Source: a virus (taxonomy: Duplodnaviria > Caudoviricetes). Taken from it: a stretch of DNA of 53,985 bases. Location of the stretch: the IMG/VR virus record IMGVR_UViG_3300045996_001810, positions 1 through 53,985 of that record; one strand, written 5' to 3'. The position numbers and the translations under genes are program-made. The notes below the pieces were generated by a model that had not been told where the DNA came from, ran no database searches, and saw only the letters and a program-made list of their open reading frames with translations. Of the stretch, positions 5,883 through 48,854 are shown in pieces. Within the stretch, counting starts at the first letter, position 1. Each line of letters begins with the position of its first letter.

Positions 5883-5891
5883 GCGACTATC
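5883..5891 (-). promoter_or_regulatory. GATAGTCGC late-promoter motif before portal (one of 18 copies; others start at 6417,10976,11532,20478,20763,24213,29114,29897,31385,33086,37362,38779,44008,45589,46353,48324,48833)
   Basis: Identical 9-mer, same strand, fixed short spacing to start codons. Confidence 0.8.
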
Positions 5892-5907
5892 CGCGCCGCC
5901 CGAGGGA

Positions 5908-6411
5908 TCAGGAGGCCGGGCCCCAGACGAGCAGGACGCACCCGAACGGCGGCCGCTCGTTCGGCTTGACCTCCAGCGCGTCGGGCGCGATGAAGCGCGG
6001 CCGGCCCGCGAGAAACTCGGTCCGGAGGCGCCCGCCGCGATCGCGCCATGGCTCGACGTGACGCTGCCACCAGCCCTGCTCGGTGCGGTTGGCCGGCAGG
6101 AGCATTGCGATCAGCTCGGCCTCGGTCTCGCGATGTGCCTTGATGACCCAGGGCTCGATCGAGCTGTACGGGGGGTTGCACCAAACGCGCTCGCCGGCCC
6201 AGGACTGCGCGAGGCCGTCCTCGACGGGCCCGTAGAACCGCTTGCACTTCGCGTTGTGCGGGAGCGCGCAGACGTCGATCGTGAACCCGAAGCGGAGGTC
6301 GAGGGGGCCGAAGGTCTCGGGCGTGGTCGCACGGTCGTCGACCTCGGGCCGGGCGCCGCGCGCGGTGAGCTGCTGCGGGTGGTTCTGGGCGCGGAAGCGA
6401 GCGAGCGTCAT
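5908..6411 (-). CDS. Phage Dam-like DNA N6-adenine methyltransferase
   Basis: TPETF...FTIDVCA...DGLAQSW.GERVWCNPPYS signature. Confidence 0.88.
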   Translation of the reverse strand: MTLARFRAQNHPQQLTARGARPEVDDRATTPETFGPLDLRFGFTIDVCALPHNAKCKRFYGPVEDGLAQSWAGERVWCNPPYSSIEPWVIKAHRETEAELIAMLLPANRTEQGWWQRHVEPWRDRGGRLRTEFLAGRPRFIAPDALEVKPNERPPFGCVLLVWGPAS

Positions 6412-6581
6412 GCGCGGCGACTATCGGGCCGGGGCGGGAGGACGCTGGTGGGCAGGCTCGCGTTGCACGAGCGGCAGCCGATCCCCGGGCTGCCCTCCAT
6501 CGCCCGGCGGTCGCGTTCGGGGACGAGCTCGAAGCCGCAGCGGCGGCAGTGGTCCGGCGGCTGCCCGTGCTTCCAGCCCAT
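6408..6581 (-). CDS. Small zinc-ribbon protein
   Basis: 57 aa with CRRC and CRSC; start overlaps the upstream stop (TGATG). Confidence 0.5.
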   Translation of the reverse strand: MGWKHGQPPDHCRRCGFELVPERDRRAMEGSPGIGCRSCNASLPTSVLPPRPDSRRA

Positions 6582-7246
6582 CAGGCGATCCGCTCCTGGC
6601 GGTCTTCCCACTCCGCGCCGGCGAAGAGGTCGGGCTGGGCGCTGTACTCCTCCCACGCGCGGCCGACCGCGCCGGACCCGGGGAATATGTCGTCCATCGT
6701 GTCGCCGCCGCGGGCGCCGAGGCAGTCGAAGAGCCAGTGGCAGAACGCGCGCGGCTTCATGCCGATGACGGCGCCCTTGGGGGCGCCGCCGGCCTTGAAG
6801 GTCCACTGTTCGGGGCTGAGTAGGAGCCAGTCGCGGACCATCGGGGCTCGGCGGGCGCGGCGGCGGCCGCCCCAGAGCAGGACGGGTTCCCAGCCGAAGT
6901 CGACGCTGACGCCGGGCTTCATCGGGGTCATGGGCTTGCACCAGGCGAGCACGCGGATCCCGGCCGGGCAGAGGGGTAGGACGTCGGGGAGCATGCGCGC
7001 GCCGGTGCAGAGGACCCAGCCGTGGGGGTAGTCGCGGGCGAGGCGGTCGACGAGCTCGCGGTGATCGACCTCGCCGCCGTAGTCCTCGTGGGCGCCGTAG
7101 TGCCGGCGGGCCTGGCCGGGGTAGGGCGGGTCGGCGAACGCGAACCGGAGTGGGCCGGCGTGCTCGGGCTGGCGGATGGCGGCCTCGGTGAGGCCGCGGT
7201 GCCGGCGCTGGCTGCGGGTGAGCTCGATCGGGGCGGGGTCGGTCAT
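6581..7246 (-). CDS. DNA N6-adenine/N4-cytosine methyltransferase (beta-class motif order)
   Basis: FADPPY catalytic motif precedes DIFPGSG SAM-binding motif. Confidence 0.82.
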   Translation of the reverse strand: MTDPAPIELTRSQRRHRGLTEAAIRQPEHAGPLRFAFADPPYPGQARRHYGAHEDYGGEVDHRELVDRLARDYPHGWVLCTGARMLPDVLPLCPAGIRVLAWCKPMTPMKPGVSVDFGWEPVLLWGGRRRARRAPMVRDWLLLSPEQWTFKAGGAPKGAVIGMKPRAFCHWLFDCLGARGGDTMDDIFPGSGAVGRAWEEYSAQPDLFAGAEWEDRQERIA

Positions 7247-7461
7247 CGGGCCTCGTCGGGCTGGTAGGTGATGCGCTGGTAGGTGCAGACGCCGCCGCGG
7301 GCGGTGTAGTCGCGGACGTCGGCGACGCGGGTGACGCGGCCGGCGCGGCGGCCGTCGATGTGGAGGACGTCGCCTTCTGGTTCGGCGCGGATGGCGAGGC
7401 CGAGGCGGGGGAGCCGGTCGGGGTCGACCTCGAGGTCGCCTTCGACGTGGGCGAGGGTCAT
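7243..7461 (-). CDS. Hypothetical protein
   Basis: 72-aa ORF with ATGA overlaps at both ends. Confidence 0.6.
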   Translation of the reverse strand: MTLAHVEGDLEVDPDRLPRLGLAIRAEPEGDVLHIDGRRAGRVTRVADVRDYTARGGVCTYQRITYQPDEAR

Positions 7462-8128: not shown

Positions 8129-8364
8129 GCGCAGGAGCCGTCGCAGTAGACGGTCTGGCCCATCGGGTCGTGCGGCCCGGCCGGGTGGCCCTCGCACTCG
8201 GCGGGCGTGAGCCGGGCGACCTCCTCGTCGGTGATCTCCTGCTCGCGATCGGCCTGCTCCTCCGCGTTGGCGGCGTTGAGGTAGGCGCTGTCGGTGGCGA
8301 GGCGGCGCATGACGGCGCGGTCGACGGCCTTCTCGATCTGCGCCTCGGTGAGGGTGCTGGTCAT
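8125..8364 (-). CDS. Hypothetical protein, leaderless
   Basis: 79 aa; ATG 6 nt after a consensus -10. Confidence 0.7.
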   Translation of the reverse strand: MTSTLTEAQIEKAVDRAVMRRLATDSAYLNAANAEEQADREQEITDEEVARLTPAECEGHPAGPHDPMGQTVYCDGSCA

Positions 8365-8370
8365 GCCCGA

Positions 8371-8399
8371 ACCGTAACGCCTAGGGTTGACGGTGTCAA
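8371..8399 (-). promoter_or_regulatory. Housekeeping-sigma promoter TTGACA-17-TACGGT with overlapping palindrome TTGAC-N3-GTCAA
   Basis: -35 at 8394-8399, -10 at 8371-8376, palindrome at 8387-8399. Confidence 0.82.
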
Positions 8400-9245: not shown

Positions 9246-10970
9246 CTAGAACCGCCGGGCCCGGACCCCTCCGTGCACCGTGGACGGCACGGAGGGGCCC
9301 TCGGCGGCCGGCGCGTTCGCCCTGCCGAGGACCGGGATCGCCGGCAGCGCGAGCGCGGCGTACGCGAAGACGTCGACCTGGTCGTCGTGCGACCCGTTCG
9401 GGAACGCGAGCAGCTCCCGCTCGTACTTCGCGAGCCACGGCGCGGCGAGCGGGTGAAAGACCGTGTGCGCTTCGTAGCGGGGGACGGCGCCCATCGCCCT
9501 GGTGACCTTGTCCGTGTCGGCCTTCAAGGGCCGGATGGCGTGTCCGGCGCGGGTGAGGCCCTGCACGACGGCTTGGCCGGCGGCCTTCTCCTCGATGCGG
9601 ACGTCTGAGACCTGCCAGGCGGCTTTGGTGCGCAGGATGAACGCGCGGAGCTCGGGGTCCTCGAAGTGGTGGCGTTCGACGTCGAGGAGGACCAGGTCGC
9701 GGTCGGGGGTGACCGCCCAGTGCGCCATCACCGAGTAGTCGGCGGTCTCCTTCTCGCTCGTGGCCGTGTCGACCGTGGCGAACCGGTAGAGCCACGCCCA
9801 GCCGACCCTTTTGACGACGCCGGCGGCGTGGTCGTCGAGGAGGAGGACGTCGCCGCGGCCTTCCCCGTGCTCGTCGAGGCGGTAGTAGCGGAAGTCGGCG
9901 CGCTTGAAGATGCCGCCCTCGTCGGGGGTCGGGGTCTGCTGGAACTGGGCGCTGAAGCCGTAGCGGCCGATCGCGCGGCGTAGGAGCTCGAGCTGCGCGG
10001 TGGGGTACATCTGCGGCCAGAGCGCCTCCCCGGGCTGGCGGCCGAGCTCGTCGGGCATGCCGTAGCCGTCGTCCTCCCCCGCGATGCCGGGGAGGCAGAG
10101 GACGTCCCATTCCTCCCCGTCCACGCCCTCGCGCGTCTGGCCCTCGGGGAGCTTGCGGCCCTGCTCGTCACGGGATGGGTCGTTCGCGAGGAGCTGGCCG
10201 CTCAGGTCGAGCTCGTGCCAGCGGGTCTGCAGGACGATCGCGCCGGCGCCGGGCATCATGCGGGTTCGGGCGGTCTCGCGCCACCAGGTCGCGGTCTTCT
10301 CCTGCATCACCTCCGAGCGGGCTTCCTCGGCGTTCTTGACGGGGTCGTCGACGACGAGCAGGTGCGCGCCGTACCCGGTGATCGTGCCCCCGACACCGGT
10401 GGAGAGCATGCCGCCGCGGCGGCCGTCGATGTTCCAGTCGTCCGCCTTGCTCGACCTGGGGTCGATGTGCACCTGGAAGAGGGCGGGGCCGACCTCCTCG
10501 AGCACGTCCCGGGCCTTGCGGCCCCAGGTGCCGGCGAACGTGGTGCCGTAGCCGGCGAGGATCACGCGCAGGTCCGGGTTCGTGCCCAGGAACCAGGCCG
10601 GGGTGTAGCGCGAGATGAGCTCGCTCTTGCCGTGCCGCGGCGGCATGAAGACCATCAGGCGGGGGCCCTGCGCGTCCGGGGGCAGGATGCCCTGCGCGAT
10701 CGCGTGCTGGACGCGCTGGACCTCGGCGACCAGGCGCACGATCCGCTCGGCGATCAGGAGGAGGTGCGGGGCGGGGTGCCAGAGGGAGGCGGGGTTGGGC
10801 TCCTCCCCGAGCTGCCCCGAGTGGACGTACGCGAACCCGGCCGGCGTGCTCGCGGCCAGGCTACGGGCGAGGGTCTCGTTCTCCGGGGTCCAGAGCCGGG
10901 CGGCGGCGCTGCTCCTCAGCGGCCCGGAGGAACTCGTGCGCCTTGGCGGCGAGGGCGGGGTCGAGACCAT
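9246..10970 (-). CDS. terL: Terminase large subunit
   Basis: Walker A MPPRHGKS, Walker B LLVVDDP, RNase H-like VDTA...HDDQVD; start chosen from the promoter motif at 10976. Confidence 0.95.
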   Translation of the reverse strand: MVSTPPSPPRRTSSSGPLRSSAAARLWTPENETLARSLAASTPAGFAYVHSGQLGEEPNPASLWHPAPHLLLIAERIVRLVAEVQRVQHAIAQGILPPDAQGPRLMVFMPPRHGKSELISRYTPAWFLGTNPDLRVILAGYGTTFAGTWGRKARDVLEEVGPALFQVHIDPRSSKADDWNIDGRRGGMLSTGVGGTITGYGAHLLVVDDPVKNAEEARSEVMQEKTATWWRETARTRMMPGAGAIVLQTRWHELDLSGQLLANDPSRDEQGRKLPEGQTREGVDGEEWDVLCLPGIAGEDDGYGMPDELGRQPGEALWPQMYPTAQLELLRRAIGRYGFSAQFQQTPTPDEGGIFKRADFRYYRLDEHGEGRGDVLLLDDHAAGVVKRVGWAWLYRFATVDTATSEKETADYSVMAHWAVTPDRDLVLLDVERHHFEDPELRAFILRTKAAWQVSDVRIEEKAAGQAVVQGLTRAGHAIRPLKADTDKVTRAMGAVPRYEAHTVFHPLAAPWLAKYERELLAFPNGSHDDQVDVFAYAALALPAIPVLGRANAPAAEGPSVPSTVHGGVRARRF

Positions 10971-11526
10971 CACCGGCGACTATCTGCACCGGCGCCCCCG
11001 TTTCAGAACCCGAGAGCTCCACCTGCGCCCGCGGCCCGTACACCTGCGGGAGCCGGCGCTCGAGGAACCAGGCGGCGGCGCGCCAGTCTCCCTGCACCCG
11101 CTCCTCCCGGCGCTCCACCGTCGTGCGCGACTTCCCCCCCGGCATCGGCTCGGTCTTCGTCACGTCCCGGGTGCGGGTGTGCGGCCCCATCGCCGCCCTG
11201 ATCACCGCCAAAGCCTGCACCTCGGCGGCAGCCGTCGCGCGCGCGCAAGCCTCCATGAAGTCCACGTACGGCGCCTCACGCGGGAGCGGGTCTATGGCGG
11301 CGGTGAGCTGGGCGATGCGCTTCGCTGACTTGCCTTTGTAGGCGTCGCGGGCGGTTTCGGCGTCGGCGATGCGGGCTTTCTCGGCTTTGCCGCGTTCGAG
11401 CCAGAGGTAGAAGGTGCTCTCGCCGATGCCGGCGGCTTGGCAGGCTTCGCGGGCGTAGGCGCCGGCTTCGATGGCGGTGGTGATGCGTTGCGCGACGTTG
11501 GGGGTGAGTTTGGTCTGGCGGCCCAT
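10861..11526 (-). CDS. terS: Terminase small subunit
   Basis: N-terminal HTH (GRQTKLTP...ACQAAGIGESTFYLWL), DWRAAAWFLERR; directly upstream of terL. Confidence 0.8.
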   Translation of the reverse strand: MGRQTKLTPNVAQRITTAIEAGAYAREACQAAGIGESTFYLWLERGKAEKARIADAETARDAYKGKSAKRIAQLTAAIDPLPREAPYVDFMEACARATAAAEVQALAVIRAAMGPHTRTRDVTKTEPMPGGKSRTTVERREERVQGDWRAAAWFLERRLPQVYGPRAQVELSGSETGAPVQIVAGDGLDPALAAKAHEFLRAAEEQRRRPALDPGERDPRP

Positions 11527-11548
11527 CAGGAGCGACTATCCCCGCGGG

Positions 11549-11935: not shown

Positions 11936-12132
11936 TTCTTTCGGCCTCCGGGGTTCGTGGCGTTGAAGATCACGACGGCGGTGTGCGGGTCGTAGGGGCC
12001 GCTCTTGCTGTAGGCGACGTGCGCGACGATGCGGTCGTCGCGGGCGATCTCGGCCTCGAGGAGGGCCTCGAAGCGTTGGGGGTCCATCGCCTCGACGACC
12101 TTGACCTGGGTGCGCTCGTTGGTCATCGGCAT
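11932..12132 (-). CDS. Hypothetical protein
   Basis: 66-aa ORF coupled to its neighbours. Confidence 0.6.
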   Translation of the reverse strand: MPMTNERTQVKVVEAMDPQRFEALLEAEIARDDRIVAHVAYSKSGPYDPHTAVVIFNATNPGGRKK

Positions 12133-12890
12133 CAGCGGGGTCCGATCGGTTCGGTGATGGTCATGTGGCAGCTGGCGCAGAGGCTCCAGGGGGCGACGTG
12201 GGCGCCTTGGGCGGGGTCATCCTGGACGTGGGCGACGGTGCCGTCGCCGGTGGCGTCGAGACAGCATGTGCTGATGCGGCCGTCGACGAGGACGTTCCCC
12301 CAGCCTCGTCGGAGCCATTCGCAGGGGTCGGACGGGGCGCTGACGTGCCAGTCGACCTGGCCGGCCCAGTCGAACGAGCTGACGGAGGCGCCGGCGTTGT
12401 GGCTTTGCAGGATCCCGTGCCGTTTGGCGCGTTCGATCGCGGGGCCGGCCTTCTCGGGGCGGTGGAGGCTCACGAACACCTTGACGTTGCAGCGGGCGAG
12501 CCACTCGCAGGCGGCGTCGTCGAGGAGCAGCCCGTTCGTGCTGAAGTTGAGGTAGGCGTGCGGGAGCGCGGACCGGGCGAGCGCGATCATCTCCTGCCAT
12601 TGGGGGTGCAGGAGGGTCTCGCCGATCCCGGTGATGGAGAGCTCGCCTTGGGTGCCGTCCCGGTCCAGGAACGCGGCCCACTCCAGCGCCCGCTCGAACA
12701 CGTCGAGGGTCATGTGCGTCTTGGGCTGGCCGCGGTGCTTCTCGAGCTTCGGGCTCGGGCAGTAGACGCACCGGAGGTTGCAGTGCGTGCTCACCTCGAT
12801 TTGGTGGATGCTCGTGATCCGGCGGGGGTAGGCGTCGGCGATGCATTGGGCGTTGGCGCGGCCTTCGGGTGTGAGCATGCTGTCGGTCAT
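12132..12890 (-). CDS. Radical SAM protein with C-terminal SPASM/twitch-like Cys cluster
   Basis: CNLRCVYC, GIGETLLHP, FSTNG; C-terminal C...DGRISTCC...CASC. Confidence 0.88.
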   Translation of the reverse strand: MTDSMLTPEGRANAQCIADAYPRRITSIHQIEVSTHCNLRCVYCPSPKLEKHRGQPKTHMTLDVFERALEWAAFLDRDGTQGELSITGIGETLLHPQWQEMIALARSALPHAYLNFSTNGLLLDDAACEWLARCNVKVFVSLHRPEKAGPAIERAKRHGILQSHNAGASVSSFDWAGQVDWHVSAPSDPCEWLRRGWGNVLVDGRISTCCLDATGDGTVAHVQDDPAQGAHVAPWSLCASCHMTITEPIGPR

Positions 12891-14472: not shown

Positions 14473-15693
14473 TCAGGCCTCCTCTCGGGTTGCGGTGCCG
14501 CCGGTGAGTTGCTCCCAGCGGTTCACGATCACGTCGCAGTAGGCGGGGTCGATCTCCAGGCCGCGGCAGACGCTGCCGGTCTTCGTCGCGGCGAGCAGCG
14601 TGGAGCCGCTGCCGAGGAAGGGGTCGGCGACTACGCACCCGGCGGGGGCGTGGCGCTCGAGGAGGTCGACGAGGAGCGGGACGGGCTTCTGGGTCGGGTG
14701 CTGCCGGCCGCGCGCGTCCTCGCCGAACATGCCGAAGTGCAGGTGCCGGAGCAGGTCGCGCTTGTGCGGGACGCGGCTCCAGATGAGCTCGAAGCCGGAC
14801 CCGAAGCCGCGGTCGGCTGACTCGGTGAGGCGCTTGTCCCAGACGAGCCAGGAGCCGGCGCGGGGGTCGGGGTCGAGGCTGGGGCGGTAGTAGTCGGCGC
14901 CGAACCAGAGCTGCTCGCAGTCGCCGAAGTAGGCGACGTGGAAGGCGGCGTCGAAAGGCTGGTCGTCGCCGTGCACGGGCCGGTGGACGGCGCCCGGGGC
15001 GAGGGCCTGGCCGTTGCCCCAGCCGGACCGGTCGGTGTCGAGGTCCATGCCGTAGGGCGGGTCGGTGAGCACGATCCCGACGTCGACGCCGGCGAACGCC
15101 CGGTCGAGCTGCAGCACGTCCGAGGAGTCGCCGCAGACGACCAGGTGCTCCCCGAGGCGGATCAGGTCCCCGGGCCGGGTGACGGGGTCGTCGGGGATCT
15201 CGGCGGCGGCGTCCGCGGCGCCGGGGTCTCCCCCGTCCCCCAGGGCGTCGCCGGCGTTGGTGCCCTCGATCAGGGCGGCGAGGTGGTCCTGGCTGAACCC
15301 GAGCGTGTCCAGGGCGGCGCCGGCCTCGGCGGCGGCGTTGAGGAACACGGTCAGCGCCTCGTTCTCCCACTCGCCGAACGGCTGGTTGTCGCGGACTGCC
15401 CACTCGTACGCCTGGGCGTCGGTGAGGCTGACGGTGAAGGTGGGGATGGTCTCCCAGGCGAGGTCGTCGCGGGCGACGGTCACGCGCTGGTTGCCGGCGA
15501 TGATGTAGCCGGTCTCCTCGTGCAGGATGACCGGGCGGGCCCAGAGCATGCCGGGGTCGCGGGAGAGCGCGCGCTGGAGCTGCTCGCGCTGCGCCTGGGT
15601 GATGAAGCGCGGGTTCGCGGGGTGCGGGGTGAGCTCGCCGATCGGCCGGAGCTCGGGCACGATCCGCGACGCGGCGAAGTCCGGGGTGCTCAT
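14473..15693 (-). CDS. ParB-like domain fused to DNA N6/N4 methyltransferase
   Basis: LTPHPANPR...IIAGNQR...DN (ParB); TDPPYG, HPTQKP, DPFLGSGSTL (MTase). Confidence 0.9.
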   Translation of the reverse strand: MSTPDFAASRIVPELRPIGELTPHPANPRFITQAQREQLQRALSRDPGMLWARPVILHEETGYIIAGNQRVTVARDDLAWETIPTFTVSLTDAQAYEWAVRDNQPFGEWENEALTVFLNAAAEAGAALDTLGFSQDHLAALIEGTNAGDALGDGGDPGAADAAAEIPDDPVTRPGDLIRLGEHLVVCGDSSDVLQLDRAFAGVDVGIVLTDPPYGMDLDTDRSGWGNGQALAPGAVHRPVHGDDQPFDAAFHVAYFGDCEQLWFGADYYRPSLDPDPRAGSWLVWDKRLTESADRGFGSGFELIWSRVPHKRDLLRHLHFGMFGEDARGRQHPTQKPVPLLVDLLERHAPAGCVVADPFLGSGSTLLAATKTGSVCRGLEIDPAYCDVIVNRWEQLTGGTATREEA

Positions 15694-15784: not shown

Positions 15785-15901
15785 TCATGCCGCAATCCAG
15801 ACCGTCGCGAGGATCAGGCACCCGTAGAAGGCGACGTCGTCGCGGTCCCGCAGGTGGTAGGCCGCGGCGCAGAGCCAGAAGATGGCGAGGATGGTCTCCA
15901 T
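15785..15901 (-). CDS. Tiny hydrophobic protein
   Basis: 38 aa METILAIFWL..., coupled overlaps. Confidence 0.4.
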   Translation of the reverse strand: METILAIFWLCAAAYHLRDRDDVAFYGCLILATVWIAA

Positions 15902-16170
15902 CAGGCGATCTCGAACGCGGTGGGCGTGGAGGCGCGCAGGACGTCGATCGCTCGCCGGAGGGCGGCCGGGCTGGCGCCGGTGCGGGCCTGGATCTCGGAG
16001 CGTTTGAAGCCCATCGCGGCGAGGACGGCGACCTGGCAGCACAGGTCGATCTGCGGCCGGTAGTGGGCGCCGACCGCGGCGCGGAGCTCGCGCAGGAACC
16101 GGCTCTCGACGCCGGCGCGGGCTGGCGGGTCAGCCTGCGGTGCTTGGGGTGCGGACGGGGACGAACTCAT
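15901..16170 (-). CDS. Small HTH protein resembling sigma-70 region 4
   Basis: AMGFKRSEIQARTGAS aligns with AMGYSHAEIGETFGVS of the full sigma at 45593; own GGAGG RBS at 16175-16179. Confidence 0.6.
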   Translation of the reverse strand: MSSSPSAPQAPQADPPARAGVESRFLRELRAAVGAHYRPQIDLCCQVAVLAAMGFKRSEIQARTGASPAALRRAIDVLRASTPTAFEIA

Positions 16171-16720
16171 GCGGCCTCCGGGCGTTGTGCAGGGCGTTGT
16201 CGAGCCCAGTGCCCATCACGCGGCGCATCCCGCTCTGCTGCATCGCCCGCTCCGCGATCCCGTCGAGGCTGACCGGCGCCTGGTCATAGATCCAGGAGCG
16301 CCGGCCAGACTCGGGGTCGGTCACGTAGCGATGCTCGGGATGGAGCCGGTGCCATGCGTCCCCGAGCTTGCGGGGGAGGTACATGGCGGCGTACCCGCTG
16401 AATCTGCCGTCCTGCTGGTAGCCCTCGCGGCGCGGCTCGAACTTGCGGTCGAGCTCGCACATGATCGCGAGGCCCTCGAGCTTGAGCTCTTCGAACTCGC
16501 CTTCCTCCAGACCGGGGAGGGCGCGTTGGATGGTGGCGGCGACGAAGTTCTCGACGTCGTCGACGTCACGGAGGGCGAAGGGGCTGGCCAGCATTCCTCG
16601 GGCGGCAGGGGCGGGGTGGGTGCCGGGGCTCCCCTGCTGGCCGACAGGGCTGCCCGGGCGGGGCGGTGGGTCACCCTGACTTGTACTGGCCGCGGCGGCG
16701 TCCGTGGGGTGTTTGGACAC
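16130..16720 (-). CDS. Truncated sigma-70-like protein (region 2 and SLD motif, no region 4)
   Basis: RKFEPRR...RFSGYAAMYL...DAWHR resembles regions 2.2-2.4; APVSLD resembles region 3.2; start uncertain. Confidence 0.62.
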   Translation of the reverse strand: MSKHPTDAAAASTSQGDPPPRPGSPVGQQGSPGTHPAPAARGMLASPFALRDVDDVENFVAATIQRALPGLEEGEFEELKLEGLAIMCELDRKFEPRREGYQQDGRFSGYAAMYLPRKLGDAWHRLHPEHRYVTDPESGRRSWIYDQAPVSLDGIAERAMQQSGMRRVMGTGLDNALHNARRPHEFVPVRTPSTAG

Positions 16721-16805
16721 ATGGCCGATATCGCTCCGAAATCGCGACCGTTCCAGGCATCCCCGGTTTGGGGTAGGCCGCTGGTGGTGCGTGCACCACC
16801 ACGGA

Positions 16806-19401: not shown

Positions 19402-19620
19402 CTACGCCGCCGCGGAGGCGGGCTCTGCGGCGTCCTGCTCCCAGTAGGCGAGCACCTTCTCGGCGCGCTCGAGCACAGCGGAGCGGGCCGGGCGCAGCCC
19501 GGCCTCGAGGTTCTGCAGCTGGGTCACGCTGCACTTGGCGGCGATCGCGAGCTGCACGCGGGTCACGCCGAGCGCCTCGCGACGCTCCCGGAGCCCGGCG
19601 GCGGTGGTGGTGGCGTTCAT
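19402..19620 (-). CDS. XRE/Cro-like HTH regulator, leaderless
   Basis: LRERREALGVTRVQLA..AKCSVTQLQNLEAG; TAGGTT 7 nt before ATG. Confidence 0.8.
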   Translation of the reverse strand: MNATTTAAGLRERREALGVTRVQLAIAAKCSVTQLQNLEAGLRPARSAVLERAEKVLAYWEQDAAEPASAAA

Positions 19621-20474: not shown

Positions 20475-20495
20475 GCCGCGACTATCCGGCGTGTT

Positions 20496-20756: not shown

Positions 20757-20766
20757 ACGCCCGCGA

Positions 20767-24209: not shown

Positions 24210-24228
24210 GCCGCGACTATCCGCCCCG

Positions 24229-24693: not shown

Positions 24694-24699
24694 GCGACA

Positions 24700-31378: not shown

Positions 31379-31416
31379 ACGCCCGCGACTATCCGACCCC
31401 ACAGAGGCCGGGAACG

Positions 31417-33082: not shown

Positions 33083-33089
33083 GAGGCGA

Positions 33090-34777: not shown

Positions 34778-35538
34778 GCGGCCTCGCAGAGGCGCTCGAG
34801 GCGGTCGAAGACGTGGTCGGGGCAGGTGCCCTTGAGCTCGGCGACGAGGTCCAGGAGCGCGTCCGCGTAGCGTTCGCGCAGCGGCGTCCTGATGTAGTCG
34901 AGCGCGGGCTGCAGCGGGAGCGGGTCGGTGTGGAGCGTGGTCGTGGTCTCGCCCGCGGTGTAGCCGGCGGCGGCGATTTCGTCGGCGGCGGCGTGCAGCT
35001 GCCGGCGGATCTCGTCAGGGTCGCTGACGACCTCGACCTCGGCGGCGCCGGCGGCGACCGCGTCGGTGATCTCCTGGTCGGCGAGCGGCTCCGCGGGGTC
35101 GCCCACGACGGGCCCGAACTTCCAGACGGTGCTCGGCCGGCCCGAGCCGGTCCCCAGCTTCCCCGCGCGGTGCGCCCGGGGCGGGGTCTCGTCGGCGAGG
35201 TCCCGGAGCATCCCGGCCGCGCTCGCCCGGGACGTGCCCACCGCGTTCGCGACCTCGGTCGCGGTCGCGGGCCCGTTGGCCTGCAGCCAGTCCGCGACCC
35301 GCTCGAGCATCGGCTTCTCCTCCATTGGGGTGATCCTCCTCACTCGTACGGTGGGGTCGGCGTGCGCCGCCCGCACGCGATCGCCGAGCGCACGAATGCG
35401 CCGGTCCATCTCCTGCGCGCCCACCGCCTCGCGCGCCGGGTACTTGCCCGCGACGACGCACTTGCTGCAGCGGCCGCCCGCGTCGCGCGCGGGGCGCTTG
35501 CCGCAAGCACGGCAGTCACCACTCGCCGGTGCGGTCAT
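34774..35538 (-). CDS. Zn-finger plus winged-HTH protein
   Basis: CRAC...CSKC; GPATATEVANAVGTSRASAAGMLRDL. Confidence 0.6.
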   Translation of the reverse strand: MTAPASGDCRACGKRPARDAGGRCSKCVVAGKYPAREAVGAQEMDRRIRALGDRVRAAHADPTVRVRRITPMEEKPMLERVADWLQANGPATATEVANAVGTSRASAAGMLRDLADETPPRAHRAGKLGTGSGRPSTVWKFGPVVGDPAEPLADQEITDAVAAGAAEVEVVSDPDEIRRQLHAAADEIAAAGYTAGETTTTLHTDPLPLQPALDYIRTPLRERYADALLDLVAELKGTCPDHVFDRLERLCEAA

Positions 35539-35715
35539 CGCTCGTGGTCATGCCGTCGTCGCGGTCGTAATCCGCCGGGCCGCGGGCCTCCACCGCCTCA
35601 CGGAGCCGGGCGTGCGCGCGGCGGAACGCGGCCTGCCGGTTCCAGCGGACGATCGCCTGGTCGAACGCGATCACCGCGACCGCCCCCAGGACGGCGCCCG
35701 CGAGCCACCACCGGA

Positions 35716-37149
35716 TCACGCCGCCACCTGCTCGGCCTGCTCGGCGAGACCCTCCAGAAGGAACCGGGCGCGGGGCAGGCCTGCGGCGAACCGGTAAGCG
35801 TCCTTGTCGCCGAGGAAGTCCTCGGGCTTCTCCCCGCCGTCTGAGTAGTGCTCCGCGTACGCCTTGGCGTCCGTGGCGAACAGGAGCCGCTGGCGCAGCT
35901 CGGAGCGGGCGGCGACGACGCCGGGGTGATCCTTCGCGAAGTACGGGGCCGCCTCGAGCACGGCGAGCGCGTTGACCTGCTCGTCGTGGGCGACGAGGAC
36001 CTGCGCGAGCTCGATCACCCGCTGCGCCGCGAGGGCGCGCTTGCGCTGCGGCCGCCACGTCGCGAGCGCGTTCGCGACCCGGTCATCGTGCGCCAGGGCG
36101 AGCGCCTCCTCCCCGACCTGGATCGCCTCGTCGAGCCGGCCCTGCTCCCCCAGCGCGCCGGAGAGCACGAGGCGGGGGAGGAACGTGTAGTCGAGCGGGT
36201 TGACGATCAGGAGCGTGTCCGGCGCGCCGAGCTCGAGCACCCGGCGGCACCACGTTTCGGCGTGCTCCCACTCCCCGCGGCGGTAGTGCCCCTCCGCGAG
36301 CGTGAGGTAGCTGTCTGGCCACTCCGGATGGACCTTGAGCGCCTGCAGGGCGAGGTCGATCGCTTCGTCGACCCGGCCCTGGTCGAACAGGCACCCGGCC
36401 ATCTTGCGGTGCACCTGCGCGCGCTCCTCAGGCCAGCCGGTCTCCACGGCCAGGTACTTCGCGAACCAGTCCAGCGCCTCGTCGTGCTCGCCCACCGCCG
36501 CGTGCTCGGTCCCGAGGTAGGAGAGCACGCGCGGGTTGTCGGGCTCCTCGGCGACCCAGGCGGTCAGGATCCGCCGGTTGCGCTCGGAGCTGCTCAGTCC
36601 GTGCTGCGGCGGCGGCTCGTGGCGCCACTCGATCACGTCAGGGCCGACCCATTCGATCCGGCCGGCGATGACCTGCGCCTCGTGCACGCGGTTGGCCCAG
36701 TGGGTGACGCCGGCGCGGACGATCCGTTCGCGCTTGAGGTAGCAGACGCACTGGCCGGTCTCGTCGCGGGCGTAGTCGTAGCCGGCGCCGTAGGCGTGCA
36801 GGTCGAGGGGGGCCTGGGCGACGAGCGCCCGGAGGTTCTGCGCGCCGATGATCCGGTCGTCGGCGTCGACCCAGACGCGCCAGTCGGTCGTGAGCTGGTT
36901 GTCTGCCGCGTTGCGGGCGGCGGCGAAGTCGTCGACCCAGTCGAACTCGCCGATCACGAGCTCGGTGAGCACGCCGGCGGCGCGCTGCTCGGTCGCGAAC
37001 CGGCGGACGACGTCCAGGGTGCCGTCCGTCGATCCGGTGTCCACGATCGCGACCTGGTCGACGTGCTCCCAGAAGCTCGCGAGACACCGTTCGATGATCG
37101 CCGCTTCGTCGCGGACGATCATCGCGACCCCAACGGTCGGGCGCCTCAC
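35716..37149 (-). CDS. GT2 glycosyltransferase with TPR repeats
   Basis: AMIVRDE, VDTGSTDGT, DDFAAARN, WVDADD, RVHE, then TPR-like helices; GTG start overlaps upstream stop. Confidence 0.9.
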   Translation of the reverse strand: MRRPTVGVAMIVRDEAAIIERCLASFWEHVDQVAIVDTGSTDGTLDVVRRFATEQRAAGVLTELVIGEFDWVDDFAAARNAADNQLTTDWRVWVDADDRIIGAQNLRALVAQAPLDLHAYGAGYDYARDETGQCVCYLKRERIVRAGVTHWANRVHEAQVIAGRIEWVGPDVIEWRHEPPPQHGLSSSERNRRILTAWVAEEPDNPRVLSYLGTEHAAVGEHDEALDWFAKYLAVETGWPEERAQVHRKMAGCLFDQGRVDEAIDLALQALKVHPEWPDSYLTLAEGHYRRGEWEHAETWCRRVLELGAPDTLLIVNPLDYTFLPRLVLSGALGEQGRLDEAIQVGEEALALAHDDRVANALATWRPQRKRALAAQRVIELAQVLVAHDEQVNALAVLEAAPYFAKDHPGVVAARSELRQRLLFATDAKAYAEHYSDGGEKPEDFLGDKDAYRFAAGLPRARFLLEGLAEQAEQVAA

Positions 37150-37355
37150 CCGGAGGTCCTCGGCCAGAAGGACCCGGAGGAGGCGCCCACCGCTCGGGCG
37201 ATCCGCTCTTGCGAGCTCGGTCCGGGACGATACCCGGACTCGCACATGGAAACGAGGGAGACCGCGCAGCCGGCCGCCTGGGCGACGTCGACGAGGCGCA
37301 TGTTCTGCGCCTTCCTTGCGGCCTTGAGGGGGTGCAGGGGGGCGGTGGGTGTCAC
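37146..37355 (-). CDS. XRE-family HTH protein
   Basis: LKAARKAQNMRLVDVAQAAGCAVSLVSMCESG. Confidence 0.82.
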   Translation of the reverse strand: MTPTAPLHPLKAARKAQNMRLVDVAQAAGCAVSLVSMCESGYRPGPSSQERIARAVGASSGSFWPRTSG

Positions 37356-37417
37356 GCGGCGGCGACTATCCGGCCCGTTTCAGAAATCCTGTCCCCCGCT
37401 TGCGTTACGGTTCCGGC

Positions 37418-38731: not shown

Positions 38732-40001
38732 TGGTCACTCCGCTCGCGCGCTCGTCGGCGGTGACGCCGGTGTCGAGCGCGACTATCCCGACCCCGTAGC
38801 TCGACGAGCCCACGGTCACGCCGCGCGATCCGCCGTTCGTGACGGTCACGTTCGTCGGGCCGGTGATCTCGGGCGCTGCCGCCCCGCCGGAGCTCACCGC
38901 GGGGGCGGGCGCGTCCCCCGCCCCGGTGGCGGCAGGGGCGGTCACGCCCGCCCCCGCGGCGGCCGCGGGGGCGGGCGCCGCGCCGGCCGCGTCCGCGGCG
39001 GGGGCAGTCAGGGCCGCGTCCGCCGTCACCGCGGGGGCTGGGGCGTCGCCGGCGCCGTCCGCGACCGCGTCATCCGCGTCCGCGTCGACCGTCGCGTTCG
39101 CGCCGGTGGAGACCCCGGGAATCGGCGCGTCGCCGGCGCCCGTCGCGGCCGGGGCGGTCACTTCCGCGCTGGTCTCGTTCCCGGAGAGCGGCGCCTGCCC
39201 GGACGCGGTCGCCGCCGGCGCGCTCACGGTCGCGTCCGCCGCGACCGCCGGGGCGGGGGCGTCCCCGGCCGCGTCGGCGACCGCGTCGTCGGCGTCCGCG
39301 TCCACGGTGGCGTCCGTGCCGCCGCCGCCTGCGGACGGGTTGACCGAGAACGCGAATCCGAGGCACCGGTAGTTCGACAGCGACGATGGCGTGCCGGTGA
39401 CGCTGAGGTCCCCGGTCGCGCCGGTCACGGCGTCGAGGTACGCGGCACCCAGGGAGAGGTCGGCGCCCGTGTCGGTGACCGCATCGAGCAACTCGGTGAA
39501 CGTCCCCGGGTGTGTGAACGCGGCCGCCCCGGTCGCGGTGCCCGACGTGGCGTCGTTGTCGAAGCCGACATACGCGGCGTAGACCCGCTTGCTTGTCCCC
39601 GCCGTGATGCCCGGGATGGTGAGCGCGCCGTCGCCGGTCGCGCTGTTGCCTTCCAGGCCGATCACGTCGATGGCGTCGGTGCCGTCGAGGTCCGGGTCGA
39701 CCCAGGCGATCGCCATGTTGACGTCGTTGGAGCCGATCGTGTTCAGCGTGAACGACGTGGGGTCGCCGGTCTGCATGATCCGGTGGAAGACCGCGATCGC
39801 GACGATCGTGCTAGTGCGGACGCTGAGGATCGTGTCCCAGTCGGTGTGCGCGCCGAAGGTCTCCGTCGACATCTGCTTCGTGCCCGCGAGCACGAAGATG
39901 CTGTCCCCGGGGTTCCAGTCGACGCCCTCGGTCCCCAGCGGGACGCTGAGGGTGCCCGGAGTCGTCGCCGTGGCGGCAGGCGTACCCACGACAGGAGCCA
40001 T
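38724..40001 (-). CDS. Ala/Thr/Gly-rich fibre-like protein with internal repeats
   Basis: Duplicated ATVDADADDAVAD.AGDAPAPAV.ADA and VTAPAATGAGDAP. Confidence 0.65.
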   Translation of the reverse strand: MAPVVGTPAATATTPGTLSVPLGTEGVDWNPGDSIFVLAGTKQMSTETFGAHTDWDTILSVRTSTIVAIAVFHRIMQTGDPTSFTLNTIGSNDVNMAIAWVDPDLDGTDAIDVIGLEGNSATGDGALTIPGITAGTSKRVYAAYVGFDNDATSGTATGAAAFTHPGTFTELLDAVTDTGADLSLGAAYLDAVTGATGDLSVTGTPSSLSNYRCLGFAFSVNPSAGGGGTDATVDADADDAVADAAGDAPAPAVAADATVSAPAATASGQAPLSGNETSAEVTAPAATGAGDAPIPGVSTGANATVDADADDAVADGAGDAPAPAVTADAALTAPAADAAGAAPAPAAAAGAGVTAPAATGAGDAPAPAVSSGGAAAPEITGPTNVTVTNGGSRGVTVGSSSYGVGIVALDTGVTADERASGVTIG

Positions 40002-44004: not shown

Positions 44005-44011
44005 GCCGCGA

Positions 44012-44335
44012 CTATCCGACCAGGCCGCGCCAGGCCACTAGGACACCGGCGAGGGCGCGCATCGCGCGCTCGTAGGCGTCGCAGGCGTCCGCGTCCCCCG
44101 CGAGCATCCCCGGCCGGTTCTTCTGCGCCCACCACAGCGCGTAGTTCCGGGCGTCCGCGAGCTCCTCGGCGACCTCGCGGAGCCACCCGTCCTGGGAACG
44201 CGGCCGGACGCCGCCCGGGTGAGCGCGGCCGTCCGCGTACGCGCCGATCCCGCCGTCGCTGACCAGGCCGACGCTGCGCGCGGCCAGGTCGGTCAACTCC
44301 CGCTCGAGCTGGTGGTCGCGCGCTACGACGGTCAC
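44012..44335 (-). CDS. MazG-like (all-alpha NTP pyrophosphatase) small protein
   Basis: WLREVAEELADARNY motif; GTGA overlap. Confidence 0.5.
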   Translation of the reverse strand: MTVVARDHQLERELTDLAARSVGLVSDGGIGAYADGRAHPGGVRPRSQDGWLREVAEELADARNYALWWAQKNRPGMLAGDADACDAYERAMRALAGVLVAWRGLVG

Positions 44336-45582: not shown

Positions 45583-45592
45583 GCCCCGGCGA

Positions 45593-46168
45593 CTATCCGG
45601 GGGCGCCTGCGAACCCTGACCCCATGCGGCGGCGCGCTGCGCCGGCCAGCTGGCACGCGCGCGTCGCGCTGACCCCGAAGGTCTCGCCGATCTCCGCGTG
45701 GCTGTAGCCCATCGCCTGCATGACCAGGGCGCGCCGCTCGCGCGCCGGGAGCTGCCGGAGCGCGTCGCGGACCTCGGCGTCGCGCGCCTGTTCGGCGACG
45801 TCGTGCGAGTCGGGGAGCGTGTCCCCGCGGCGGACCGTGCCGCCGTCGTCGGTGATGAAGGTCTCGTCGAGGCTGACGAACCGCCAGTCGGCCTCACGCT
45901 TCTGATAGTCGCGGCCCTGGCCGCGGAGGGCGCGGTTCTCGACGCGCATCGCGTCGATCACCGCGGTCGTGCACCGCCGCCACGCCCAGGTAGTGAACGT
46001 GGCGCCGCGGGCGGGGTCGTAGACGTGCGCGGCCCTGACCAGGGCCAGGAGCGCGACAGCGTGCGCGTCCTCCATGCCGATCCCGTTCGCGGCAATCTGG
46101 GTCCGTAGCCGGTTCACGACGGCGCCCGCGACGGCCATGTTGGCCTCGGCGAGCTCGGCGGCGGTCAT
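45593..46168 (-). CDS. Phage sigma-70 family sigma factor (regions 2 and 4)
   Basis: YDPARGATFTTWAW...IDAMR; VSLDE; LPARERRAL..AMGYSHAEIGETFGVS. Confidence 0.88.
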   Translation of the reverse strand: MTAAELAEANMAVAGAVVNRLRTQIAANGIGMEDAHAVALLALVRAAHVYDPARGATFTTWAWRRCTTAVIDAMRVENRALRGQGRDYQKREADWRFVSLDETFITDDGGTVRRGDTLPDSHDVAEQARDAEVRDALRQLPARERRALVMQAMGYSHAEIGETFGVSATRACQLAGAARRRMGSGFAGAPG

Positions 46169-46347
46169 ACGCGCGTCCACCGGGGCGGCTTGAGGTCGTA
46201 CTTGCGGACCTTGAGGACGCCGATGTTGCCGTGCCCCGGGACGCGGAGCAGGCCGCGGACGAACTTGTCGCCCTCGTCGCGGACGGTCATGGTCACGCGG
46301 GAGCCGGAGAAGCGGAAGGTGGCCCCGAGGTGCGCCGATCGGTCCAT
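46165..46347 (-). CDS. Small basic hypothetical protein co-transcribed with the sigma gene
   Basis: 60 aa; motif at 46353; ATGA overlap. Confidence 0.65.
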   Translation of the reverse strand: MDRSAHLGATFRFSGSRVTMTVRDEGDKFVRGLLRVPGHGNIGVLKVRKYDLKPPRWTRV

Positions 46348-46395
46348 CGCCGGCGACTATCGGACCGCCTTCTCGGCCCCTGACCCCTGAAACGG

Positions 46396-46423: not shown

Positions 46424-46446
46424 AACGTCCAGGCTGGAGGAGGGGC

Positions 46447-47400: not shown

Positions 47401-47418
47401 GGTGGTCTCCCGCCTCCG

Positions 47419-47859
47419 TTACGGGGTGCCGGAGAGGGGGCGGGGGTTGACGTAGAGCGAGAAGACCTCGCCGGCGGCGGCGGGGGTCTCGGACTGGCCG
47501 ATCGTGTACCGCAGGGAGCCGGACGCGGCCGCGACGGGGCCCATCGCCCCGTTGCTCGAGGCGATGTTGACCTCGGCGCCGACGCCGATGGAGGCGCCCG
47601 CGACGACCTTGACGGTGTTGCCCTGGCCGTGCACGGTGACGGCGGCCGGGTACTCGGCGCCGGACGCGGCGGGCTGCGCCTTCGCCAGGGCGATGCCGAG
47701 CGGGAGCTCGTTGTAGGTGGCGATCGGGAGCACCGCGCGCGGCTGGGTGCCGGTCGGGGCGCTCTTGACGGGCATGGCGCCGCCCCCCGAGAGGGGGCCG
47801 ACGAGGGTCGCGATCGCGATGCCGGGGAACTTGACCCCGTTGTGGCGCTCGTGGGCCAT
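47419..47859 (-). CDS. Capsid decoration/cement protein (DUF2190-like)
   Basis: Gly/Ala-rich, VKVVAGASIGVGAEV...IGQSETPAAAGEVF; synteny. Confidence 0.75.
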   Translation of the reverse strand: MAHERHNGVKFPGIAIATLVGPLSGGGAMPVKSAPTGTQPRAVLPIATYNELPLGIALAKAQPAASGAEYPAAVTVHGQGNTVKVVAGASIGVGAEVNIASSNGAMGPVAAASGSLRYTIGQSETPAAAGEVFSLYVNPRPLSGTP

Positions 47860-48317
47860 CAGACGTTCTCCTCGGCGAGCAGGTAGACCGCGTCGGCGAA
47901 CGAGATGTTCTTCTCGGCGGCGAGGGTCTTGGCGCGGGCGGCGAGCGCCTCACGGTCCCCGGCGGCGTCCTCGCCGGCGGGGGCCGGTTCGCCCTTGGGC
48001 TCGGTCTTGACGACCGGGGGGAGCTCGTCGAGGGTCTTGACCGCGAGGTCGAGGTCGACCTCGGCCAGCTTCTCGAAGCCGGACTTGGACGCGGGCGCGA
48101 CGCGGCCCTCGTCGAGCGCCTTGGCGTAGGCGGTGGCGAACCGGTCGGTGGCCGCGGTCTCGCCGGCGGCCGCCTTGACCAGAAGGTCGGCGTGCTCGTC
48201 AGCGGAGAGCAGGACCATGCCGGAGGTCTCGGGGCGCGCGTCGATCGCGTCGAGGATCTGGGCCTCGTCCGCGTCATCGGCGAGCCCGAGCTTGGTGGCG
48301 ATGGCAGAGAGGCTCAT
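47859..48317 (-). CDS. Nested in-frame scaffold protein (MSLSAIATKLGL...)
   Basis: Internal ATG preceded by the late motif at 48324. Confidence 0.7.
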   Translation of the reverse strand: MSLSAIATKLGLADDADEAQILDAIDARPETSGMVLLSADEHADLLVKAAAGETAATDRFATAYAKALDEGRVAPASKSGFEKLAEVDLDLAVKTLDELPPVVKTEPKGEPAPAGEDAAGDREALAARAKTLAAEKNISFADAVYLLAEENV

Positions 48318-48827
48318 ACGCCCGCGACTATCCGACCGGTCCGGCTGGGCGGCGACCGCCTCGAAGTCCTCGCTCAGGCTGATCGCGGGCATCCGCTTGC
48401 GCAGGAACGGCCGGTTGGTCAGGCCGGCGCCGAGCAGCGTCTTGCCGCGGTCGACGCCGTGCTCGTCTTTCCACGCCCCGACGAACGTGGGGGAGATGTA
48501 CCGGTACTCGCCGTTACGGATCGCCTCGGCGCCGGCCGGGGTGAACTCGACGTCGGCCAGGACGTGCTCGCCCTCGACGACCAGGTCACGGATCCAGCCG
48601 GCGGCCTTCGTGCCCTTCCCCTTCTCGGGGGAGTGGTCGAAGTCGATGAGCGCCTCCCCGTTGAAGTGCTCGGCGAGGTTGCGCTTCCAGCTCGCGGCGT
48701 CCTCGGGAGTGATGGAGAACTCGCCGTAGCGGCGGTCCTTGAAGCGGTCCAGGCGCGCGACGGGGATCCGCTTACGGCGGCTGTCGTCGAGCGTGGTGGG
48801 GGCGTCGGCGATCGCGAACAGGTCCAT
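47859..48827 (-). CDS. Mu gpI-like prohead protease with C-terminal scaffold
   Basis: IDFDH...AAGWI...EYRYISPTF...AGLTNRPF. Confidence 0.92.
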   Translation of the reverse strand: MDLFAIADAPTTLDDSRRKRIPVARLDRFKDRRYGEFSITPEDAASWKRNLAEHFNGEALIDFDHSPEKGKGTKAAGWIRDLVVEGEHVLADVEFTPAGAEAIRNGEYRYISPTFVGAWKDEHGVDRGKTLLGAGLTNRPFLRKRMPAISLSEDFEAVAAQPDRSDSRGRMSLSAIATKLGLADDADEAQILDAIDARPETSGMVLLSADEHADLLVKAAAGETAATDRFATAYAKALDEGRVAPASKSGFEKLAEVDLDLAVKTLDELPPVVKTEPKGEPAPAGEDAAGDREALAARAKTLAAEKNISFADAVYLLAEENV

Positions 48828-48854
48828 CGCCGGCGACTATCCGGCCGCGGGCCC

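Follow-up and report, generated by a model that had tools for sequence, protein, structure and literature searches.

A start-codon-adjacent nine-base word as a probable −35-less, leaderless promoter element in a high-GC soil phage

The phage record IMGVR_UViG_3300045996_001810, a complete genome of 53,985 bp and 73% GC that was analysed whole (the window), carries 18 exact minus-strand copies of the nine-base word GATAGTCGC, most of them directly before a start codon. From sequence analysis we think it probable that this word (core GATAGYC) is a phage-specific −10-type promoter which lacks a −35 element and gives leaderless messenger RNAs. RNA polymerase would open the AT-rich GATAGT island in the 73% GC DNA and begin transcription 6–9 nt downstream of it, at or 1–3 nt before the ATG or GTG. 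Sixteen genes, including one that begins at a nested in-frame scaffold start, would each have their own leaderless mRNA, translated without a Shine–Dalgarno sequence, and at two conserved sites the same element would stand ahead of a leader that bears one. The element would be read by a specificity factor supplied by the phage and not by the host's general holoenzyme alone. A companion palindrome, TTTC-N-GAAA, would be the operator of a dimeric regulator, for which a conserved XRE-type protein is the obvious candidate.

An invariant word next to start codons

All 18 minus-strand positions given by the earlier note on this DNA are exact matches to GATAGTCGC. Its full count was right for that strand and overlooked a single plus-strand copy. 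In 100 dinucleotide-preserving shuffles the word occurred 0.32 times on average over both strands and never more than twice, so that none of the 100 reached the observed 19. The plus-strand copy is probably due to chance, since reversed-pattern controls for the 7-mer gave 0–2 matches per record; the plus-strand block between 48.9 and 54 kb holds no copy at all. With up to two mismatches allowed, 191 matches were observed and 184.6 expected, which puts near-copies at background. CGC directly follows all 18 minus-strand GATAGT hexamers, each of which has the A and the T, at positions 2 and 6, that a sigma70-type −10 requires. The word is all-or-none, without degenerate copies.

Little else is shared by the aligned copies. 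The information profile stays below 0.55 bit everywhere from −50 to −6 and is flat upstream of −5, with no conserved −35 upstream of the 18 copies; only a weak common flank is seen, with G at −5, C at −2 and G at −1 (G..CS). The earlier statement that there is no shared −35 is thus borne out by the flat profile, with the qualification that TTTC-N-GAAA is common to a subset of copies; the earlier note mentions neither this element nor the common flank. The copies and the genes behind them are listed below.

48833–48841, minus: copy 1, 5 nt before the ATG (48827) of the Mu-like protease gene, the first gene of the minus-strand arm
48324–48332, minus: copy 2, within the protease open reading frame (ORF); a nested, scaffold-like C-terminal product of 152 aa begins at an in-frame ATG (48317)
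46353–46361, minus: copy 3, before a 60-aa gene and then an ECF-like sigma gene, past a 12-bp-stem hairpin that follows the capsid gene
45589–45597, minus: copy 4, before a 416-aa gene (PHROG exonuclease); the TAG of the copy is the stop of the sigma gene
44008–44016, minus: copy 5, GTG at 3 nt; the TAG of the copy is the stop of the preceding 107-aa gene
38779–38787, minus: copy 6, followed by a 47-nt leader, GGAG and a TTG start
37362–37370, minus: copy 7, GTG at 6 nt, 69-aa XRE-type helix-turn-helix (HTH) gene; glycosyltransferase genes follow
33086–33094, minus: copy 8, 152-aa head–tail gene
31385–31393, minus: copy 9, 87-aa gene and then the tail tube, past a 13-bp-stem hairpin
29897–29905, minus: copy 10, 37-nt leader, GAGGAG and TTG; gene between tail tube and tape measure, by its position a candidate tail assembly chaperone
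29114–29122, minus: copy 11, tape measure protein of 1450 aa with an SLT domain
24213–24221, minus: copy 12, 622-aa tail gene
20763–20771, minus: copy 13, 86-aa gene; the TAG of the copy is the stop of the preceding 524-aa gene
20478–20486, minus: copy 14, CHAP-domain lysin
11532–11540, minus: copy 15, small terminase
10976–10984, minus: copy 16, large terminase, with GTG at 2 nt or ATG at 5 nt
6417–6425, minus: copy 17, Dam-type methyltransferase
5883–5891, minus: copy 18, portal fusion protein of 1706 aa
45904–45912, plus: the plus-strand match, antisense within the sigma gene

The earlier note had read the targets as structural, lysis and glycosylation genes. Pfam and PHROGs confirm the Mu-like protease, the nested scaffold start, the tape measure, the CHAP lysin, the terminases, the portal fusion and the glycosyltransferases. 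The list also takes in non-structural genes, namely the Dam methylase, the PHROG 'exonuclease', the small XRE regulator and the sigma operon.

Spacing was measured as the distance d from the end of the 9-mer to the next start codon that opens an ORF of high GC at third codon positions (GC3). By this measure 16 of the 18 copies have an ATG or GTG 2–6 nt downstream, opening an ORF of coding-type GC3: d is 3 nt at four sites, every one a GTG, 5 nt at seven (including 10976, which also has the GTG at 2 nt) and 6 nt at five. Counted from the end of GATAGT, the start codon lies 6–9 nt away. GGAG, GAGG or AGGA was found within 20 nt of the start at none of these 16 adjacent copies. The remaining two (29897 and 38779) precede leaders of 37 and 47 nt that end in a TTG preceded by GAGGAG or GGAG. 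Both arrangements had been described in the earlier note and are upheld here. Genes without the motif mostly have GGAG-type words or overlapping stop and start codons.

Several genes with an adjacent motif begin 99–221 nt past the previous gene, gaps across which translational coupling to the preceding gene cannot serve them. The absence of a Shine–Dalgarno sequence together with these gaps means that the start codon would be needed at the 5′ end of the mRNA, a known way of initiating without a Shine–Dalgarno sequence. Strong hairpins, with perfect stems of 12 and 13 bp, lie 22–30 nt ahead of copies 3 and 9 (z = −2.4 and −3.0), and the genes past them would therefore need re-initiation. A scan for terminators with T-runs gave 5 against 3.6 expected, which is uninformative at the GC content of the window.

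No cultured phage is close. A 10-kb query had no megablast match in a phage collection, the highest tblastn identity obtained with the large terminase was 37%, tblastn with the window sigma found only Geobacillus virus E2 (24%), and a 20-nt probe of motif plus spacer matched neither viral contigs nor genome contigs. The capsid protein has 182 homologues in a metagenome-derived protein collection. The loci of the capsid alignment include four IMG/VR proviruses of 47–51 kb, and one relative is a 34-kb prophage carried by a 484-kb Solirubrobacterales contig from a metagenome-assembled genome (MAG), with a capsid identity of 52%. GATAGTC occurs 12–15 times on the gene strand of these relatives and 0–1 times on the opposite strand; a count over the records of five relatives and the window gave 12–18 copies on the gene strand and 1–2 on the other. 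The orthologous targets are terminase, portal, tape measure and tail genes, the protease together with its internal scaffold start, a small recombinase and the small XRE gene that follows the capsid. The observation thus holds beyond the window, for a whole group of temperate actinobacterial phages that are uncultured.

Across 13 sequences, 96 of 126 gene-strand GATAG[TC]C words have an ATG or GTG 2–7 nt after the 9-mer, as against 5.5% of control positions; 79 of these starts are ATG and 17 GTG. The commonest spacing from GATAGY to the start in the family is 8 nt (d = 5; 48 of 96). The internal protease copy recurs in the relatives, always with d = 6, which keeps the TAG of the word out of frame. 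Motif-plus-leader sites also recur at orthologous positions, with leaders of 37–97 nt. The last three bases of the word are uniform within each genome and vary between genomes, being CGC, CGG, CCG, CAG or TCG after GATAGT. In one sister lineage, L056, the word is GAGCCGATAnTCG with the hexamer GATAnT, found seven times on the gene strand and never on the opposite one, four times before an ATG at N6–7. A further locus, L057, has neither the motif nor the 154-aa gene discussed below. Two lineages, L021 and L052, have GATAGCC. A pattern scan for phages of the GATAGCC type gave 32 single-match loci, with no related genes save chance methylase or glycosyltransferase matches.

The word is phage-specific. 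A search of the host MAG (3.9 Mb) for GATAGTCG-N3–7-RTG gave 21 matches, 12 of them in the 34-kb prophage, against 3 for the reversed control, and no comparable concentration is found outside the prophage. Seven non-prophage sites were examined: five are antisense-like or non-coding and two stand at the beginning of coding-like ORFs, one of them as TTGCTT-N16-GATAGT-N9-ATG. The metagenome contigs that match the window consist of short identical pieces at about 3× depth and of high-GC noise, and are of no use for conservation.

Promoter-like geometry and alternative readings

The window offers its own standard for a leaderless promoter. Four textbook promoters of the host type end 5–7 nt before an ATG or GTG, from which we infer that the host reads leaderless mRNAs.

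24691–24729, minus: TTGACA-N18-TACGGT-N6-ATG, 154-aa SprT-like gene
8362–8399, minus: TTGACA-N17-TACGGT-N6-ATG
49956–49992, plus: TTGACA-N17-TACGCT-N5-GTG
53216–53254, plus: TTGACA-N17-TACGGT-N7-ATG

A fifth −10-like sequence, TAGGCT, lies 6 nt ahead of the ATG at 8656. The phage therefore seems to have an ordinary promoter class alongside the motif class. A promoter function of GATAGTCGC is favoured because its geometry resembles that of these four promoters. It is favoured, too, by copy 1, which sits in a 150-bp divergent spacer and heads the protease–capsid operon: by eye, the sole other promoter-like signal there is a plus-strand TTGACG-N18-TACTCT, and no other same-direction candidate was seen. 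Moreover, the word has an operator-like palindrome linked to it, and the L056 variant resembles a plain extended −10. The plus-strand signal belongs to an arrangement at 48842–48960 (TTGACG-N18-TACTCT, leader, GAGGAGG and ATG at 48955) that overlaps the region 20–50 nt upstream of copy 1.

Leaderless transcripts are made in the middle and late classes of the Thermus phage phiYS40. In Deinococcus–Thermus a −10 element a few base pairs before an ORF suffices as a promoter, giving leaderless mRNA with a spacing requirement and no Shine–Dalgarno sequence (PMC12340547). That element is a generic TANNNT used genome-wide by the host holoenzyme, whereas ours is a phage-confined word of 7–9 bp beside TTGACA/TACGGT promoters.

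Several observations weigh against a promoter. Position 1 of the hexamer is G in every copy, where a sigma70-type −10 has T. The sixth base is C in L021 and L052, and GATAGCC misfits the canonical T at −7, the base that such elements conserve most strongly. Nine invariant bases per genome are more than sigma region 2 normally specifies. The family mode of 8 nt exceeds the host-type N5–7 by 1–3 nt, so that many mRNAs might carry a 1–2-nt leader or the register might differ. The palindrome is not at one fixed distance, its centre lying 7–32 nt upstream or 25–27 nt past the motif start. Finally, the only sequencing runs that contain the sequence are two soil DNA metagenomes (11–14% of sampled words), and no RNA run is among them.

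The same position next to start codons could be explained if the word acted in RNA, as a start-associated signal on a polycistronic mRNA that, instead of a Shine–Dalgarno sequence, recruits ribosomes or a phage factor, or that is cut by a sequence-specific endoribonuclease, with leaderless mRNAs as products of processing. The closest parallels are the Start Associated Sequences (SAS, with the extended element ESAS) of Cluster K mycobacteriophages and Cluster EF Microbacterium phages, whose authors lean to a role in translation and leave the function open (PMC3203893, PMC7302621). The likeness is close: both belong to actinobacterial phages and are asymmetric, well-conserved words with 10–19 copies per genome, in one orientation, 3–7 bp before starts that are mostly ATG, with one stray opposite-strand copy and with the stop codon of the preceding gene sometimes inside the word (PMC3203893, PMC7302621). 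Position, orientation, copy number and ATG preference thus match, and GATAG is present in both words, that of Cluster K being GGGATAGGAGCCC. Our word also occupies the Shine–Dalgarno place, G in an RNA partner could tolerate the T/C alternation at position 6, which is a transition, and the modal spacing exceeds that of host-type promoters. SAS are found in the arm of non-structural genes, after gaps longer than 50 bp, ours mainly at virion and lysis genes, some of them gapless. Just upstream of a subset of copies both may have a comparable symmetric second element, which is a pair of 17-bp inverted repeats in the ESAS and a single palindrome of 9–11 bp here.

Other evidence makes a role in RNA quite unlikely in our estimate. 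SAS are described as containing an AGGAG core and pairing with the 3′ end of 16S ribosomal RNA (PMC3203893, PMC7302621), whereas our word has no GGAG or other Shine–Dalgarno core, and the 16S sequence of the host MAG lacks a GRCUAUC complement, with just CCUAUC at position 236. Motif copies ahead of 37–97-nt leaders with their own Shine–Dalgarno sequences recur at orthologous sites, which makes the function of the motif independent of adjacency to a start codon. Copy 1 would require another promoter, and none was seen by eye in the spacer. The linked palindrome, with T or A at its centre, points to double-stranded DNA, the L056 variant resembles a plain −10 hexamer, and the conserved genes offered no nuclease candidate.

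A DNA site without promoter function was also considered, namely an asymmetric prophage-repressor site that silences read-through of the late region in the lysogen. The stoperators of the temperate Cluster A mycobacteriophages, mentioned in PMC3203893, are a precedent. Like our word, they occur in many asymmetric, co-oriented copies at gene boundaries. Consistent with this, our relatives are proviruses, one of them on the 484-kb host contig, and three copies in the window overlap stop codons. Stoperators, however, are not known to keep a set distance of a few bases to start codons or to mark starts inside genes. A roadblock needs neither the start distance of 2–7 nt kept by 96 of 126 copies nor a copy at an internal in-frame start; translation of 16 genes without a Shine–Dalgarno sequence would be left unexplained. 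A conserved repressor of matching asymmetric specificity was not found, and the XRE protein suits the palindrome better. We consider this explanation very unlikely.

A −10-type promoter is the reading that we prefer. The earlier note's proposal of late promoters set almost gene by gene on a −10-only element stands in so far as the word is phage-specific, has no conserved −35, takes the place of the Shine–Dalgarno sequence and has a geometry like that of host-type leaderless promoters. That it acts as a promoter, and late in infection, we infer from these features, and the sixth base proposed as T is C in two lineages.

Candidate readers of the motif and of its companion palindrome

Three small genes are considered as sources of a reader, and a fourth as the source of a palindrome binder.

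45593–46180, minus: 195-aa ECF-like sigma with regions 2 and 4, downstream of copy 3
16130–16594, minus: 154-aa protein, a hallmark of the phage family and candidate sigma-region-2-like reader
15901–16170, minus: 89-aa HTH protein; its gene and the end of the 154-aa gene overlap
37146–37355, minus: 69-aa XRE-type HTH protein, candidate palindrome binder

The promoter might be read by a recognisable factor of the sigma70 family, be it the ECF-like sigma of the window, a host sigma of the sigma28/WhiG type or the primary sigma. The earlier note spoke of several phage sigmas, but only a single sigma70-family gene is found in the window. Its place downstream of copy 3 would allow positive feedback. 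The two copies that flank the sigma operon share GGGGTCAGGG (45614–45623 and 46378–46387, minus), with GTCAGG 17 nt upstream of GATAGT. As a −35 element GGGGTCAGGG was rejected: it has just two exact copies, and 16 one-mismatch copies compare with 10.3 expected.

The sigma28 (FliA/SigD/WhiG)-type −10 element is GCCGATAA/T. The L056 sequence GAGCCGATA(A/T/C)TCG contains this consensus, the (C/G)(C/G)GATAG of the main family is close to it, and one host gene has the TTGCTT-N16-GATAGT-N9-ATG noted above. However, no TAAA-type −35 lies 15 nt upstream, and the main family has an extra G and an invariant GTC.

The window sigma has no homologue in G001–G005, and Sigma70_r2 scored above cut-off only in the window and in G001 among the five records searched. 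No full sigma gene was found in the near-complete relatives G002, G003 and G004, which carry 13–15 motif copies each. An ECF promoter requires a −35, of which no conserved form is seen here; taking GTC as an ECF −10 would put the transcription start inside the ORFs at d = 3–6. A search for the ECF pattern GGAAC-N15–18-CGATA/CGTC/GTCT gave five scattered matches, none tied to a gene start. The ECF-like sigma is therefore an improbable reader, since G002–G004 lack it and ECF geometry would have transcription begin within the ORFs. Outside the prophage, the host MAG showed no regulon of the word, and last three bases that are uniform within a genome and differ between genomes fit a co-evolving phage factor. 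Reading by any of the recognisable sigma factors is in our judgement unlikely.

On the available evidence, which is weak, the 154-aa protein appears a better candidate than the ECF-like sigma. It has homologues in four of five relatives, the exception being G001, a record that starts in the portal gene and lacks the terminase region. Of 18 loci searched with its profile, 7 gave a match with E ≤ 1e-49, and all seven have GATAGTC; the profile hits include L049, L114 and L118; L056, with its variant word, has a distant homologue only (E 1e-12). The GATAGCC loci L021 and L052 stop short of the gene's neighbourhood. In the protein collection 222 homologues were found. The fold is predicted with confidence (pLDDT 86.6), small viral 'sigma factor' clusters come closest to it among the named clusters of the ESM-Atlas (score 0.95), and in a list of weak Foldseek matches sigma region-2 chains stand at ranks 3, 19, 20, 29, 30, 33 and 40, all with E ≥ 0.8. 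Ten longer homologues were scanned: P0246 adds an HTH of the GerE/sigma-r4 type, and P0311 has a sub-threshold Sigma70_r2 in the homologous stretch. Two of five homologues of the 89-aa protein have a weak likeness to Sigma70_r4_2.

Taken together, these likenesses make it possible, though somewhat doubtful, that the reader consists of the 154-aa sigma-region-2-like protein and the adjoining 89-aa HTH protein, an arrangement like that of T4 gp55. The late promoters of T4 are read by gp55 with gp33; they consist of a strict −10-only word, TATAAATA, without a −35 and set nearly gene by gene. Like gp55, the 154-aa protein would be a minimal phage sigma with region 2 only, a comparison of architecture alone and not of homology. 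T4 transcripts, unlike those proposed here, have Shine–Dalgarno leaders, and their activation needs the sliding clamp.

Against such a two-protein reader, the 154-aa protein had no match in Pfam or PHROG, none below E 0.27 among PDB sequences and none at E ≤ 0.001 when Foldseek was run against PDB and BFVD; hhalign against three sigma sequences gave a probability of 0.07%. The other eight of the ten longer homologues showed no family or weak, mostly HTH-type likenesses (E 0.003–0.09), all below cut-off. The window's own 89-aa protein matched no family. Moreover, the co-occurrence of motif and 154-aa protein is not independent, since both are inherited with the phage lineage.

Two sequences near the 154-aa gene were noted. 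About 150 nt ahead of it, at 16700–16760 on the minus strand, GAGCGATATCGG resembles the L056 word, and a hairpin GGTGGTGCACGCACCACC follows the gene that precedes it.

The companion palindrome occurs as TTCTGAAAC four times in the window, each time just upstream of a motif copy (4 of the 18 copies).

37377–37385, minus: centre 12 nt before copy 7
29912–29920, minus: centre 12 nt before copy 10
20493–20501, minus: centre 12 nt before copy 14, with a TGA that ends the preceding gene
11000–11008, minus: centre 21 nt before copy 16

Of the 38 TTC[AT]GAA palindromes in six genomes, 31 have a motif copy no more than 45 nt away, where about one would be expected, and the centre is mostly 12–13 nt before the motif. 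Forms with central T and central A are both present, which fits a dimer site on double-stranded DNA. A 65–73-aa XRE-type gene is found behind a motif copy in all six genomes, and the palindrome stands beside that copy in five. The conserved XRE protein is hence a candidate for binding the palindrome, and TTTCTGAAAC a putative target site of the 69-aa protein. A second small XRE-type gene at 19402–19620 (minus; 72 aa), a paralogue of the motif-driven one, follows TAGGTT-N7-ATG; each relative, too, has two small XRE-type genes.

Significance and other features of the genome

The motif joins traits of −10-only phage late promoters, of leaderless ORFs adjacent to a −10 element and of Start Associated Sequences. 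If it is a promoter, a single 9-bp signal would give nearly every late gene of a high-GC phage, even the nested scaffold start, both its transcript and its translation start, and neither a −35 nor a ribosome-binding site would be required. The word can guide the annotation of start codons and nested genes across a large group of phages so far uncultured, and the 154-aa protein is a concrete candidate for a new minimal sigma-like factor. The motif also offers a comparison case for Start Associated Sequences, whose function has been open since 2011 (PMC3203893).

A wider scheme can be put forward tentatively, although we are more inclined to doubt it than to accept it. A widespread group of uncultured temperate phages of Solirubrobacterales-like Actinomycetota would run all of morphogenesis and lysis from 12–18 −10-only promoters fused to start codons, read by a minimal two-protein sigma (the 154-aa region-2-like and the 89-aa region-4-like protein, from overlapping genes) with which the word co-evolves (GATAGTC, GATAGCC and GCCGATAnT), and the same logic would explain Start Associated Sequences.

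Nearly all genes of the window lie in a minus-strand arm that runs from 48.8 to 0.76 kb. It begins with the protease and its nested start, the capsid, the 60-aa gene with the ECF-like sigma, the PHROG 'exonuclease' and tail-fibre-like genes, and continues with the small XRE regulator, two glycosyltransferases, head–tail genes, tail tube, tape measure, tail genes and CHAP lysin. The lysin is followed by 8 kb without any motif copy, where genes for a replication-initiator-like protein, a DNA methylase, VRR-NUC and a radical-SAM protein lie, and then by the small and large terminases, a motif-free set of small genes, Dam and the portal fusion. A 6-kb plus-strand block (48.9–54 kb and on to 0.5 kb) lies between portal and protease, which are adjacent in the relatives; its genes include an OmpR-type winged-helix protein and an MT-A70 methylase. 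No Rfam family or tRNA was found in the window.

The protease and scaffold form an in-frame nested pair at 47859–48827 (minus; internal start 48317), as in Mu I/Z, with a motif copy for each start. In G002 and G003 two motif copies just 68 nt apart stand ahead of two in-frame ATGs. The small-terminase ORF (10861–11526, minus) overlaps the start of the large terminase (9246–10973) by 113 nt and has a lower GC3 of 0.86; the overlap may reflect a frameshift or a mis-set end. A TGA at 11003–11005, within TTCTGAAAC, closes another frame. The portal fusion (757–5877, minus) has a Mu-type portal domain (residues 47–420) and a C-terminal domain like ADP-ribosyltransferase exoenzymes (1551–1693); at 1706 aa it compares with 952–1101 aa for the portals of the relatives.

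The leaders of the tail assembly chaperone genes are 71–97 nt long in the relatives (G002 26892, G003 21245, G004 23182 and the G006 prophage 42524) and just 37 nt in the window (29860–29905). Those of the relatives have conserved stretches that include CACCACCUCC, which resembles the 3′ end of 16S rRNA, and GGAG words, and the leader may be a self-pairing translational control element.

In the relatives G002 (6752–7327, L092), G003, G004 and the G006 prophage, the first motif-driven gene of the late arm encodes a protein of 191–197 aa that, judged from its sequence, is like tyrosine recombinases; no homologue was found in the window. Three DNA methyltransferase genes are present in the window, of the Dam type (5908–6411, minus), the N6_N4_Mtase family (14473–15693, minus) and the MT-A70 family (51028–51627, plus). 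A GT2-TPR glycosyltransferase and a methyltransferase–GT1 fusion (33182–37245, minus) have homologues in five of five relatives at 48–58% identity, and a radical-SAM protein (12132–12890, minus) in four of five. These glycosyltransferase and radical-SAM genes are among the best conserved, above the capsid.

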